Part shown: piece by piece, positions 34,599-52,207 of the stretch
Layout of the letters: each line of letters begins with the position of its first letter
Numbering within the stretch: the stretch's first letter is position 1
Sequence record: PZ386965.1
DNA: 64,000 bases
From: a phage
Direction: 5' to 3' (one strand)
Translations under genes and position numbers: made by a program
The notes under the pieces: model-generated
What the model was told of the DNA's origin: nothing
The model's database searches: none
The model's input: the letters and a program-made list of their open reading frames with translations, nothing else

Positions 34599-34816
34599 GT
34601 CACCTTTAAGCAGTATTCTTCTACATGCTGTTTACGACCTTTCTTATCAATAAAGGTATATTCAACGAATGTTCCAATGTAGTCTTTATCTACGTCATGT
34701 GGACTATTAATTGGACATTTAGTACGACAAATGCGTTCCCATTGACGAATAATTACTGCTTTATTTTTAGGATCAAACGGATGTGGGTAATGCACATTCA
34801 TAATAATGGTTCCCAA
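34589..34816 (-). CDS. hypothetical protein (tk.x)
   Basis: Track ORF. Confidence 0.45.
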   Translation of the reverse strand: MGTIIMNVHYPHPFDPKNKAVIIRQWERICRTKCPINSPHDVDKDYIGTFVEYTFIDKKGRKQHVEEYCLKVTWL

Positions 34817-35265
34817 TCAACAATCACAATTTCTAGTTTAGTGGAATATGTATCAAGAATTTCTTCAATGATATCCCAGTTTCCACCACCTATACCTGCA
34901 CCAATTCTTGGCATATAAATTACAGGCTTTGTTATCTTATTTTTTCCGAATTCATTTAATTCTATTATACAATTCATTAAAGCATAGTACTCAAAATTAG
35001 GTCCCGGCTCAAACTGTGTATAAAGATTAAAGCAATAAGCTTTATGGGTCTTAAAATATTTTTCATAAACCGAATAAGTCCCGAGTTTAGACTCATCTCC
35101 GAATTCGGTTTGAAGTTTATCGGCTTCTAAAATTTTTGGATAAGCCTTTGCCAATTGACCTGCTACACCGGCGCCCATTGTATGAAAACAATTGCACCCA
35201 TGAGCAATATTATTACCTTTAGAAAACAGGGCGATATTGTCGCCCTTGATATAGTTTTTAATCAC
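34798..35265 (-). CDS. macro-domain protein (ADP-ribose binding / hydrolase-like)
   Basis: Aligns by eye to macro motifs: NIAHGCNC..MGAGVAGQLAKAYP (cf NAAN..GGGVxGAI..AAG) and RIGAGIGGG (cf ISTGIYGYP). Confidence 0.6.
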   Translation of the reverse strand: MIKNYIKGDNIALFSKGNNIAHGCNCFHTMGAGVAGQLAKAYPKILEADKLQTEFGDESKLGTYSVYEKYFKTHKAYCFNLYTQFEPGPNFEYYALMNCIIELNEFGKNKITKPVIYMPRIGAGIGGGNWDIIEEILDTYSTKLEIVIVDWEPLL

Positions 35266-36152: not shown

Positions 36153-36611
36153 CTAGATTTTAATCACTGCTTTAGAAGCTTTTCCTGGTAGTCGTTTATT
36201 GTTAATAATAGCCATTCTGCATTGAAGAGTCTTCATTTTGAATGCTGGATTTTCGCGACAAACTGTAAGTCCTAACCAAAGATTTCCATCAGTTATTTCT
36301 AAACGGCCTGGGCGATATTCGACACCTTCGACAAAATCTTCATCAACATCTGGACGTGCCGGCATTGATAAAAATTCTGCAACTTCTTTAACATGATTTT
36401 TTACTTTACGAAATAATTCAAAAACGTAATTCTCATCTATTTCTCTCTGGATGGCACGATCTAAGAGATGTTGAGAATACTTGATATGAAAGCCCGGTAG
36501 TCCAAGAGACTTTGCAGCATCTTTTATACTGGCATTTATTTTGCGGAACTCCGTTTCAAAGATTCGACGGAGTTTATTGCGGCGGATAAAAACGTCTGAA
36601 TTGATAGTCAT
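36153..36611 (-). CDS. regB: endoribonuclease RegB
   Basis: 152 aa in T4 regB position and size. Confidence 0.7.
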   Translation of the reverse strand: MTINSDVFIRRNKLRRIFETEFRKINASIKDAAKSLGLPGFHIKYSQHLLDRAIQREIDENYVFELFRKVKNHVKEVAEFLSMPARPDVDEDFVEGVEYRPGRLEITDGNLWLGLTVCRENPAFKMKTLQCRMAIINNKRLPGKASKAVIKI

Positions 36612-36623
36612 TTTGATTTCTCC

Positions 36624-36668
36624 TCTAGTTGACAGGTCTATAGTAACACAACTAGAGGAGAAGTAAAC
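36624..36668 (-). promoter_or_regulatory. early promoter / stem-loop cassette
   Basis: TCTAGTTG..CAACTAGA inverted repeat, GTTTAC -35 on minus. Confidence 0.5.
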
Positions 36669-36967
36669 TACTCTTTGAAAGGAATTAACTTTTTAACTGC
36701 TTTAGATACTTCGTCACGAACCTGGTGGAAGTTCTTGAGCTGTTCAAGGCGTTGTTCGTAATACGCAATCTCATCTTCTTCAAGACAATCGTCAGCGTCT
36801 TCTTTCAGATATGCCTTGTACTCATTAAAGAGGGCCCATAGGCGATTCTCAAAGTCATCAAGGCTTTGAATTTTCTTGTGCTTCGGAACAAGGCCAAAAG
36901 GATTGCTTTCAGTTATGCGTCGAGATGCTTCATAATGAGTTCCAAAGCCTGATAGGATTTGAGCCAT
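36668..36967 (-). CDS. hypothetical protein (vs.x)
   Basis: ATG overlapping upstream stop (TAATG). Confidence 0.45.
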
Positions 36968-37212
36968 TAGTATTTTTCCTCTGGTTGAAATACCGCACGA
37001 CAAGCCCACATACTAGCTTCCTTTAGGCGTTCTTTAGCACAGTTCAATTGGGACAAAGCCGTCAGAGCTTCAGGAGTATTTGCTGATAATGCTTCTTCTG
37101 CCAGGGCGTCTAGAATAAGTCCTAAACGAACTTCGGCATCTTTAATAGCGTTCACTTTACCGATTTTATCATCGGTATGCGGCTTGTAGCCTTTGATGTC
37201 TTCAATCGACAT
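36967..37212 (-). CDS. small helical protein (vs.4 position; possible Acb2-like sponge)
   Basis: 81-aa ORF with coupled start; position only. Confidence 0.4.
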
Positions 37213-37426
37213 AAGGAATTTCCTCATCTGTGGCAAGGTCATATTCGACCAATTGGATAGGCTCATTAATACCATATCCACGTACAGTGATATCAGTTGT
37301 CGGATAGTTTCCAGTAATATCACCCATTCTAAATGCTTCAATGAATGATTGCTCGCCTGAGCAACTAAACCAGGCGGCAAAACATTTTAAAACATCTTCA
37401 GACCCTTCTATAATCAATTTAGTCAT
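37202..37426 (-). CDS. hypothetical protein (vs.x)
   Basis: 74-aa ORF. Confidence 0.45.
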   Translation of the reverse strand: MTKLIIEGSEDVLKCFAAWFSCSGEQSFIEAFRMGDITGNYPTTDITVRGYGINEPIQLVEYDLATDEEIPYVD

Positions 37427-37788
37427 TATAGACTCTCGGTAAAGGTACGAGCGATAACGTCGCGCTGCTGTTCCGGAGTCAGAGAGTTAAAGCGAACTGC
37501 ATAACCGGATACACGGATGGTCAGCTGCGGATATTTTTCCGGATGCTTAACTGCATCTTCCAGAGTTTCACGACGCAGAACGTTAACGTTCAGGTGCTGA
37601 CCACCTTCAATTTTAACTTTAGGTTGATGTTCAATTTCAATTTCACGAGCATTCAAACCGTAGAAAATTTCTGGATCTACAATAGCGTCTTCTTTAAAAG
37701 TCTTAGAGACAATAATCCGGGCTTGAGTACCGTCTTCAAAATAAATAGTGCCTTTATGTTCACCTTCAAGAATTTGATATGCTTTCAT
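37426..37788 (-). CDS. autonomous glycyl radical cofactor (GrcA/YfiD-like)
   Basis: C-terminal glycyl radical motif RVSGYAVRF in ...[60 protein letters not shown]. Confidence 0.9.
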
Positions 37789-37794
37789 ATAACC

Positions 37795-38103
37795 TCAATT
37801 AGAAAATAAATTTATCCAAGTTTTTTCTTTAATCAAAAATGGGTCGGAATTAAACGCCATTAAACTTTGGGTGATTAATCCTTTAAATGGCCCATCAATA
37901 AATTCCATTTTGAAATGCGGAATACTAGTCATCAACCGTGCATTAGGAGCGGTACAAAGAACCTGCTGCCCTGCGAACGGACCTTTAGTCAAACGGTATC
38001 GTTTAGGTTTAAAATGGTAAATCTCATAATTTTCTACAAGTGCCCTTTTATTGCATACTGGACTGTTATAACAATATTCAAAAACTTCAATAGTTGTCAT
38101 CAT
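37795..38103 (-). CDS. hypothetical protein (vs.x)
   Basis: ATGA-coupled start. Confidence 0.45.
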   Translation of the reverse strand: MMTTIEVFEYCYNSPVCNKRALVENYEIYHFKPKRYRLTKGPFAGQQVLCTAPNARLMTSIPHFKMEFIDGPFKGLITQSLMAFNSDPFLIKEKTWINLFSN

Positions 38104-38639
38104 TGCATTCCAATCACAAAAAATTGAGGACGAGCAATACCACCGATGCAATATTTGCTTTTGCAACAGTGTTGGACTGTTTTAATATGGATGTCGTAAA
38201 TCTTATCCATATCAGGAGCTTTAATAGGCTCGTCAATTATGTACAGAATACGAGAAAGTGTTAATCCACGGAATTTATGTCCTTCATTACCAATAAAACT
38301 ACGGACAGAATCAGTAAATAAACGGAATCGAATATCATCGCTAGAATATCGAGAAAATTCTTTTTCAATGTTGCCAGCAGAAATTTTAGCATAAGCTGAA
38401 GTATTAGAAAGAACAATAACCGTTCCGCCATCATACAACCAATTAGCAGCAAAATTAGTCACAGCAATTGATTTACCTGATTGTCGGCCGCCGTCTAAAC
38501 GAAGTGTACAGTACTGCTTGAGTACGTCTTCAAATGGTGGGACATAACCGTTCTTACAAATTTCTTCTACTCTAGCATCAGAATGGTGTGTAAAAGCATT
38601 CATCAGGGATAGATAAGGTCCAGTTAAAAATGTTCTCAT
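38100..38639 (-). CDS. P-loop-containing hypothetical protein (vs.x)
   Basis: GGRQSGKS Walker-A-like. Confidence 0.5.
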   Translation of the reverse strand: MRTFLTGPYLSLMNAFTHHSDARVEEICKNGYVPPFEDVLKQYCTLRLDGGRQSGKSIAVTNFAANWLYDGGTVIVLSNTSAYAKISAGNIEKEFSRYSSDDIRFRLFTDSVRSFIGNEGHKFRGLTLSRILYIIDEPIKAPDMDKIYDIHIKTVQHCCKSKYCIGGIARPQFFVIGMQ

Positions 38640-38811
38640 ATTATTTCTCTTAAGGTTTGGGCCATTCCGTGGCACATGTTAGGTCCTTCGACTCGCTATG
38701 TAAACCCATTACCGCATTGCGCTCGACCTTATTACAGGTTGGAAAAGGTACATCACTCAGAGGACTCGACGTTCATGAGGAGAGGTTGCGTTTCCCTTTA
38801 TTAGGCAAGAA

Positions 38812-39141
38812 TTATACTCTAGGCTTTTGAGCTTGTTTGGTATTGGATTCCCATGCGGCTTTGGTAATTTTGTTAGCGGCATAACCAAAGGCATTAGATA
38901 GAACACCTTTAGAGTTGAATACATCCAATCCAATAAGTACACCGGCTGCGTTAAATTTAGGAGCAAAGTACGCATTAGTTTTAGAAAGAGCTTTTTTCAA
39001 TTCAGGGTCTTGAACCAAGCCATCAAAAACGCCTTTACTATTTACTTTATATGTTACTTTGGGATTCTTACCTTCTTCGATAGCAGCTTTCTGTTCCGCA
39101 GATAATGTAACTTCAGTGATAAACTCCTGATATGTTTTCAT
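38812..39141 (-). CDS. internal head protein (capsid-targeting MKTYQEF N-terminus)
   Basis: MKTYQEFITE start like T4 IP capsid targeting sequence. Confidence 0.7.
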   Translation of the reverse strand: MKTYQEFITEVTLSAEQKAAIEEGKNPKVTYKVNSKGVFDGLVQDPELKKALSKTNAYFAPKFNAAGVLIGLDVFNSKGVLSNAFGYAANKITKAAWESNTKQAQKPRV

Positions 39142-39166
39142 TTTGTTCCTATTGTTTTAATTTATG

Positions 39167-39481
39167 TTATTCTTTAGGGAAGTTTTTAGAGTATGCATCA
39201 TAAAGTTTATTACCAATACGACGGAAGACTTTAGCTGCAAAACGGTTTTCAGGGTTTTTAATCATGATTTGCATCATGTAAGTTCCTGCATCCGAAAGAG
39301 CTTCTTCATAGTACCCATTAATTTCTTTAAGAGTCCTACGTTTACCACCAGGACCGTCAACAGTAATTTTCCATTTACCTGTAGAAGTGCGGCTCGGTGG
39401 CTCAACTTGTTCAATCCAAATATAACCACCTTCAACGCGTTGGTTGGCGGATTCTGCAATAAATTCTTTATACGTTTTCAT
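39167..39481 (-). CDS. internal head protein (capsid-targeting N-terminus)
   Basis: MKTYKEFIAE start. Confidence 0.7.
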   Translation of the reverse strand: MKTYKEFIAESANQRVEGGYIWIEQVEPPSRTSTGKWKITVDGPGGKRRTLKEINGYYEEALSDAGTYMMQIMIKNPENRFAAKVFRRIGNKLYDAYSKNFPKE

Positions 39482-39545
39482 TTTTTGTTTCCTTGTTTGT
39501 TTTGATAGAGTAATTATACCATATTAATACTTAAGCGTAAACAAT

Positions 39546-39806
39546 TTAAGCTTTACCTCCAGAAATAATTCCGAAGTTGTTAAAATCGTATCCAATATCG
39601 TCAACATCTACTTTAGGACTTACTACAACATAAGCAATTTCACTACGTTTTGCATAGGTGTTGATTTCTTTACCATCGCCACCTAAGAAAGAATACCCAT
39701 TACGTTTTAATGAGCCAAAGTCTTCCGCATCACCAATGAAAGCTTTAACTTTAAATTTGGGGTCTTTGGCATCTGCTTCAATGATAAATTCTTGATACAT
39801 TTTCAT
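39546..39806 (-). CDS. internal head protein (capsid-targeting N-terminus)
   Basis: MKMYQEFIIE start with AAGGA RBS. Confidence 0.6.
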   Translation of the reverse strand: MKMYQEFIIEADAKDPKFKVKAFIGDAEDFGSLKRNGYSFLGGDGKEINTYAKRSEIAYVVVSPKVDVDDIGYDFNNFGIISGGKA

Positions 39807-49997: not shown

Positions 49998-50074
<77 letters not shown>

Positions 50075-50080
50075 AATATA

Positions 50081-50154
50081 TGACCCAGACCAGATTCGAA
50101 CTGGTAACCTTTCCCTTATGAGGGGACTGCTGCTAACCATTGAGCTACAGGGCC
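50081..50154 (-). tRNA. tRNA with CAU anticodon (Met or lysidine-Ile)
   Basis: Hand-folded: D-arm TAGCTCAATGGTTAGC, anticodon loop CTCATAA, T-arm ACCAG-TTCGAAT-CTGGT, acceptor with one mismatch. Confidence 0.7.

Positions 50155-51521: not shown

Positions 51522-52207
<686 letters not shown>

Follow-up and report, generated by a model that had tools for sequence, protein, structure and literature searches.

Our analysis of a 64,000-nucleotide stretch of phage DNA (record PZ386965.1; hereafter the window) indicated that the small open reading frame between vs.5 and vs.3 very probably encodes a functional Acb2-type cyclic dinucleotide sponge, in an 81-residue form with a shortened hairpin tip. 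On the homology evidence, the protein is an orthologue of T4 Vs.4 (Acb2). The source phage belongs to the genus Mosigvirus of T4-like coliphages and shares about 99% identity with phage pEK20; in the 2.2-kb region around vs.4, identity was 99.0% to Escherichia phage vB_EcoM-pEK20 and 97–99% to the remaining top Mosigvirus matches, HX01 and AlbertHofmann among them. A first-pass annotation had assigned this reading frame to the T4 vs.4 position by counting genes from regB, and both the position and its coordinates proved correct, as the local gene order of vs.8, vs.7, vs.6 (GrcA-like), vs.5, vs.4, vs.3, regB, vs.1 and vs agrees with that of T4, annotated JS09 and an annotated Tequatrovirus, with the regB neighbour supported by a match to Pfam REGB_T4. 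The same slot is labelled gpvs.4 in JS09, 'anti-CBASS protein 2' in a Tequatrovirus and 'BLASTp hit to T4 Anti-CBASS protein 2' in Mizar. Coordinates of the features discussed are collected in Table 1.

Table 1. Features of the acb2 and acb1 loci, numbered along the window.
Feature	Position	Strand	Description	Basis
vs.4 / acb2 CDS	36967..37212	-	81 aa plus stop; predicted cyclic-dinucleotide sponge, short-tip allele	ORF and homology
GAGG Shine-Dalgarno of vs.4	37222..37225	-	9 nt upstream of the ATG	Read from sequence
vs.3 / TadIV-1 homologue	36668..36967	-	99 aa, long form; predicted N7-cADPR sponge against type IV Thoeris	PDB 9WIW match
gene 57B / acb1	51522..51977	-	151 aa; predicted 2H-phosphoesterase cleaving cyclic oligonucleotide signals	Sequence match

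The earlier Acb2 call had been positional only, and it is now supported directly by the sequence. A search of Vs.4 against all PDB chain sequences returned a single match, T4 Vs.4 (7UQ2; E=7.8e-30, residues 3–81), while Pfam identified the Acb2_Tad1_hairpin family (PF24729; 65.5 bits, cut-off 27) and the PHROGs search identified PHROG 717 (E=1.6e-25), the family by which Jenson et al. 2023 defined Vs.4 homologues (PMC10097602). A further 1,233 phage records contained a tblastn match to Vs.4, and this body of homology excludes a chance open reading frame. Identity to T4 Vs.4 was 75% overall (60/80 aligned residues), with 30/33 residues identical in the N-terminal segment and 19/19 in the C-terminal segment.

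Published T4 Vs.4 residues were placed on the 81-residue protein through a global alignment and their conservation was followed in a family alignment of 121 sequences, comprising the 81-residue protein and 120 homologue cluster representatives. All six T4 cGAMP contacts (Y8, H11, K23, S74, R79 and F82) have identical counterparts in Y9, H12, K24, S67, R72 and F75; an S74N mutation in T4 Vs.4 interferes with cGAMP (Jenson 2023, PMC10097602). The T4 helix cap T12 corresponds to T13, and the four hexamer residues L29, A66, A73 and A77, mutation of which abolishes oligomerisation and binding in T4 Vs.4 (PMC10097602), are likewise identical as L30, A59, A66 and A70. Across the family the six contacts and A59 were invariant (121/121), and T13, L30, A66 and A70 were retained in at least 97% of sequences. 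The sole difference among the mapped residues was T4 F33, which is L34 in the window protein; leucine occupies this site in 43 of the 121 sequences, and F33A destabilised the T4 hexamer only in part (Jenson 2023, PMC10097602).

AF2 models built with and without an alignment gave the same two-helix hairpin (helices 12/14–44 and 47–74), with a pLDDT of 86 overall and 95–98 in the core, so that the two long antiparallel helices expected of an Acb2 protomer are present in the model. Foldseek comparison of the model to the PDB returned 7uq2_B first (E=7e-6) and PaMx33 Acb2 (8h2j) second, and the comparison to T4 Vs.4 that had been proposed as a check on the Acb2 call revealed similarity in both sequence and predicted structure.

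The vs.4 reading frame runs on the minus strand from an ATG at 37212..37210 to a TAA at 36969..36967, and the protein ends in FQPEEKY. Its start overlaps the vs.5 stop by 11 nt (37202..37212), its GAGG falls within the 3' end of vs.5 and its stop overlaps the start of vs.3 in a TAATG at 36969..36965, an arrangement that places vs.4 in a tightly packed and, judging from this layout, translationally coupled gene run. The Mizar record annotates a ribosome binding site at the place equivalent to the vs.4 GAGG. An in-frame ATG at 37225..37227 on the same strand, 15 nt upstream of the conserved start, overlaps the GAGG and would add MRKFL to the protein. This ATG (37227..37225) was rejected as the vs.4 start, as homologues begin with MSIEDIK, MAIEDIK or MIEDIK and the GAGG precedes the ATG at 37212. 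A promoter and terminator scan of 36400..39600 gave counts that were not above those of shuffled sequence, and we therefore claim no transcription unit boundary in this interval.

Several neighbouring genes of the region also gave domain or family matches. Just downstream of vs, positions 34798..35265 (minus strand) encode a 155-residue protein with a Macro domain (PF01661, 28 bits; cut-off 22), which could reverse ADP-ribosylation-based defence; the same gene also adjoins vs in a divergent metagenomic T4-like contig (L008; ENA ERZ27235606 k119_179815). Two genes upstream of acb2, vs.6 (37426..37788, minus strand) encodes a 120-residue GrcA-like autonomous glycyl-radical cofactor (Pfam Gly_radical, PF01228, E=2e-18), a gene that is missing from contig L008, which keeps an 81-residue acb2. 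The vs.8 product (38100..38639, minus strand; 179 aa, PHROG 1488) may represent a P-loop protein, as it is weakly similar to large terminases in their N-terminal ATPase region (PHROG 2, E=1.8e-4), with Pfam matches to Terminase_6N and AAA_14 that are below threshold.

By homology with T4 Vs.4 and PaMx33 Acb2, six copies of the Vs.4 hairpin would interlock into a hexamer, and its three dimer interfaces would each form one pocket sandwiching one cyclic dinucleotide, for example 3'3'-cGAMP or cUA. Base stacking would be provided by Y9 and F75, and the backbone would be held in place by H12, K24, S67 and R72, with the ligand bound at nanomolar affinity and without cleavage, as described for the hexamers of T4 Vs.4 (PMC10097602) and PaMx33 Acb2 (PMC10312549), which have three dinucleotide pockets. 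Sequestration would keep the signal below the activating threshold, so that the CBASS effector would stay off and the phage cycle would be completed. It is from these two homologues that we infer hexamer assembly, ligand binding and ligand spectrum for the 81-residue allele. Together, the Acb2 sponge and the Acb1 nuclease should cover most CBASS signals, because the Acb1 of the same genome would cleave cGAMP, cUA and cAAA. Active Acb2 also sequesters the decoy 2',3'-c-di-AMP and thereby triggers the Panoptes defence (PMC12657218), for which reason the phage is predicted to be Panoptes-sensitive.

With respect to ligand range, the 81-residue Vs.4 is predicted to bind dinucleotides only, like T4 Acb2. 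The Arg/Thr pair of the PaMx33 trinucleotide pocket (R67/T74) is absent, its equivalents being S54 and E61, and an R/K plus T/S pair at these sites was found in 0/121 sequences of the T4 clade; in T4 Acb2, which likewise fails to bind cA3, D61/T68 occupy these sites (PMC10312549). By the same Arg/Thr pair, the window protein falls outside the broad-spectrum Acb2 subgroup of trinucleotide binders (PaMx33, JBD67). The pocket on the three-fold axis, which is the cA3 site of PaMx33 Acb2 (PMC10312549), is lined by the variable hairpin middle, and it could be argued that the shorter middle has remodelled this pocket towards a different second ligand or towards a non-CBASS signal, as in Acb2_43. Such a shift would fit the hypervariability of positions 41–58 beside an invariant dinucleotide pocket, as well as the binding of 3'cADPR by some Acb2 homologues (PMC12393519). 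It would also fit the substitutions at three of five T4 positions that have been suggested to keep cA3 out (Y37, A57, L60, D61 and T64; PMC10312549), where mostly smaller residues occur (A38, S54 and N57); T4 A57, in contrast, is enlarged to L50, and L60 is preserved as L53. We nevertheless consider a changed ligand range very improbable, as not only is the trinucleotide pair missing throughout the clade, but a T4 D61R mutant gained no cA3 binding (PMC10312549), the extra beta-strands used by Acb2_43 to bind 3'cADPR are absent from the 81-residue protein (PMC12393519), and the substitution pattern of the middle, presented below, reflects relaxed rather than positive selection. A T4-like dinucleotide sponge is consequently the reading that we retain for the ligand pocket.

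Sequence variation in vs.4 was bipartite. Across the 121 sequences, residues 1–33 and 63–81 were near invariant (0–1 bit of entropy), in comparison to residues 41–58, which were hypervariable (2–3.4 bits) and contained every indel. Values of dN/dS across alleles were approximately 0.02–0.1 for codons 1–33 and 63–81, and pairwise Nei-Gojobori comparisons of the middle gave approximately 0.3–0.45 with saturated dS and showed no sign of values >1. This indicates that the middle is under a constraint 10–30 times weaker than that on its flanks, consistent with relaxed constraint.

The 81-residue length is the shortest form in the T4-clade Acb2 family, whose other members range from 87 to 98 residues, and it was found in 3 of the 121 sequences, namely the window protein, its own 90% cluster and one 74%-identical lineage. 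Its tip is reduced to a two-residue turn (N45-T46), with 7–8 residues missing from the variable hairpin tip: seven in comparison to Kanagawavirus Q7622, the nearest of the longer types, and eight in comparison to T4 Vs.4, including both tip cysteines. At least 33 phage genomes carry the form intact, among them AlbertHofmann, a BASEL-collection phage (locus tags bas47_*) whose copy, bas47_0217, differs by one residue (Q76R) and is accompanied by a 99-residue vs.3, and a second 81-residue Acb2 with 74% identity lies at the same locus of contig L008 (1108..1353); on these grounds the short form is not a recent accident. An origin by simple in-frame loss of 21 nt from the JS09/Mizar allele was rejected, as the vs.4 middle has just 43% DNA identity to JS09 and has more in common with the type found in Kanagawavirus Q7622.

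An alternative is that the short allele is decaying or already inactive, in which case the tip loss would prevent hexamer packing and with it CBASS sponging. Such a loss might be favoured since active Acb2 triggers Panoptes, which in T4 selects for Acb2 loss of function (PMC12657218), and both the extreme shortness of the protein and the leucine in place of F33 would be in keeping with it. The T4 escapers from Panoptes, however, were frameshifts, stop codons or the binding-site mutation F82C and included no tip deletions (PMC12657218), whereas the vs.4 reading frame is intact and AF2 models the tip as a clean tight turn with a pLDDT >95. Moreover, nonsynonymous divergence was near zero in the ligand and hexamer segments against dS values of 0.1–0.33 even inside the short-allele lineage (window compared to AlbertHofmann), and the 74%-identical short allele of another phage lineage has the same length and residues. 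An inactive allele is therefore judged highly unlikely, and an active short-tip sponge remains our preferred interpretation.

The gene following vs.4 extends the repertoire of this region. Pfam searches of vs.3 and vs.5 gave no match, and vs.3 was recognised through the PDB sequence search, where it matched 9WIW (UPEC07 TadIV-1; E=1.6e-35, residues 1–99 against 1–101); in PHROGs it matched PHROG 2037. The 9WIW entry is the UPEC07 homologue of T4 Vs.3, a protein that recently received the name TadIV-1 and that forms dimers sequestering N7-cADPR, the signalling molecule in type IV Thoeris (Chen et al. 2026, PMC13243611). In that study, TadIV-1 proteins of approximately 90–100 residues with a flexible N-terminal arm were active and those of approximately 70 residues were inactive, the arm of about 30 residues being required for activity (PMC13243611). 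The alignment showed that vs.3 of the window retains this arm, in contrast to the short forms of JS09 and Q7622 that lack it. Of the UPEC07 residues compared, R18, R19, S23, N24, K34, E58 and H83 are shared as R16, R17, S21, N22, K32, E56 and H81, all seven being implicated in binding in UPEC07, among them the Arg-Arg/Lys set implicated in N7-cADPR binding (R18, R19 and K34 in UPEC07; R17, R18 and K24 in T4; PMC13243611), while S16, S21 and K60 are replaced by Ala, Thr and Ala, respectively. The protein has 99 residues in comparison to 101 in UPEC07 and 92 in T4 Vs.3, and we assign it as a long-form TadIV-1 with a predicted anti-Thoeris sponge function. The first-pass annotation had described an anti-CBASS repertoire only; its Acb1 and Acb2 components were both matched, and its scope proved too narrow in view of this anti-Thoeris homologue.

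Comparison to JS09, a member of the same genus, revealed a mosaic structure across vs.4 and vs.3. DNA identity was 98% in vs.5 and 89% in the spacer upstream of regB, in comparison to 87%, 43% and 88% for vs.4 codons 1–33, middle and codons 63–81, and 39% for vs.3. JS09 possesses an 88-residue Vs.4 together with a 71-residue short vs.3, and in Mizar a Vs.4 middle of the JS09 type stands beside a vs.3 protein with the same sequence as that of the window. This mosaic, along with dS values between Mizar and the window of 0.1 for the vs.4 3' end and 0.54 for the 5' end, places the recombination breakpoints inside the conserved ends of vs.4, and vs.4 and vs.3 make up a recombination-shuffled accessory block (36668..37212) in these phages. 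Contig L008 lacks both vs.3 and vs.6, so that in this region TadIV-1 and GrcA count as accessory and dispensable. These observations can also be combined into a joint reading, in which the vs.4 middle is a specificity or evasion module exchanged by recombination through the invariant flanks, the 81-residue tip has brought a second pocket with a new ligand range or the loss of a surface recognised by some host factor, and the gene pair is a selected two-sponge cassette with an active TadIV-1 and not a chance mosaic; we regard this combination as quite unlikely. The interpretation favoured here is that of an active dinucleotide sponge whose middle has been under relaxed constraint.

The first-pass annotation had also assigned gene 57B to the Acb1 family from two HxT/S motifs of a 2H phosphodiesterase, and this assignment was supported by sequence and gene order. 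The gene product gave a full-length match to T4 Acb1 (PDB 7T26; E=7.9e-59) and matched Pfam PF23474 over profile positions 1–144 of 144 (196.8 bits, cut-off 27). Both motifs are intact, with H43-S44-T45 and H111-I112-T113 aligned to the T4 tetrad H44, T46, H113 and T115, through which T4 Acb1 cleaves cGAMP, cUA and cAAA (Hobbs 2022, PMC9117128). As in T4, 57B follows gene 1 and 57A. It differs from T4 Acb1 by a one-residue indel and in its first motif, which reads H-S-T and not as worded in T4, and the position matching FBB1 W74 has W in place of an aromatic F. Genes for tRNA-Arg(TCT) and tRNA-Met(CAT) lie next to each other at 49998..50154 (minus strand), approximately 1.4 kb from acb1.

The assignments of Vs.4 as Acb2 in T4-like phages, of 57B as Acb1 and of Vs.3 as TadIV-1 are all already published, and the Acb2 and Acb1 genes are recognised automatically by Pfam. 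What is modestly new is the minimal-tip allele and its shuffling with long and short TadIV-1 forms. There is also a small gain in annotation, as identical or near-identical proteins in GenBank are mostly listed as 'hypothetical protein' and the vs.3 of pEK20 is mislabelled as an 'endoribonuclease Regb domain-containing protein'. The window describes a Mosigvirus with a T4-like layered counter-defence, in which an Acb2 sponge and an Acb1 nuclease would act against CBASS and a TadIV-1 sponge against type IV Thoeris, and this helps to predict host range on CBASS or Thoeris strains in addition to Panoptes sensitivity. As a natural minimal Acb2, the short-tip allele could reveal what the hexamer requires of the hairpin tip, and AlbertHofmann, which carries the same allele, is available for experiments.

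Among characterised Acb2 proteins, T4 Vs.4 (PDB 7UQ2) is alike in its slot between vs.5 and vs.3, its ligand contacts, its four hexamer residues and its helical hairpin. It differs in having 88 residues in comparison to 81, in its tip segment EALDNCEDCEFAKNYAES, which is replaced by a different 10-residue stretch in the 81-residue protein, and in its two tip cysteines, F33 and D61/T68, where the window protein has no tip cysteines, Leu and S54/E61. PaMx33 Acb2 (PDB 8H2J/8H2X; Huiting 2023; Cao et al., PMC10312549) belongs to the same Pfam family and shares the dinucleotide-pocket residues Y11 and K26 (Y9 and K24 here), although structural alignment gave only about 17% identity; its hexamer additionally takes up two cyclic trinucleotides by means of R67/T74 and a kinked helix (PMC10312549), and these residues are absent from the window protein. 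Acb2_43, a homologue that inhibits Thoeris (Hadary et al. 2025, PMC12393519), is again of the same family and hexameric hairpin architecture, but its extra terminal beta-strands form a pocket for 3'cADPR and it does not inhibit CBASS (PMC12393519), while the 81-residue Vs.4 carries the T4-type dinucleotide pocket instead.
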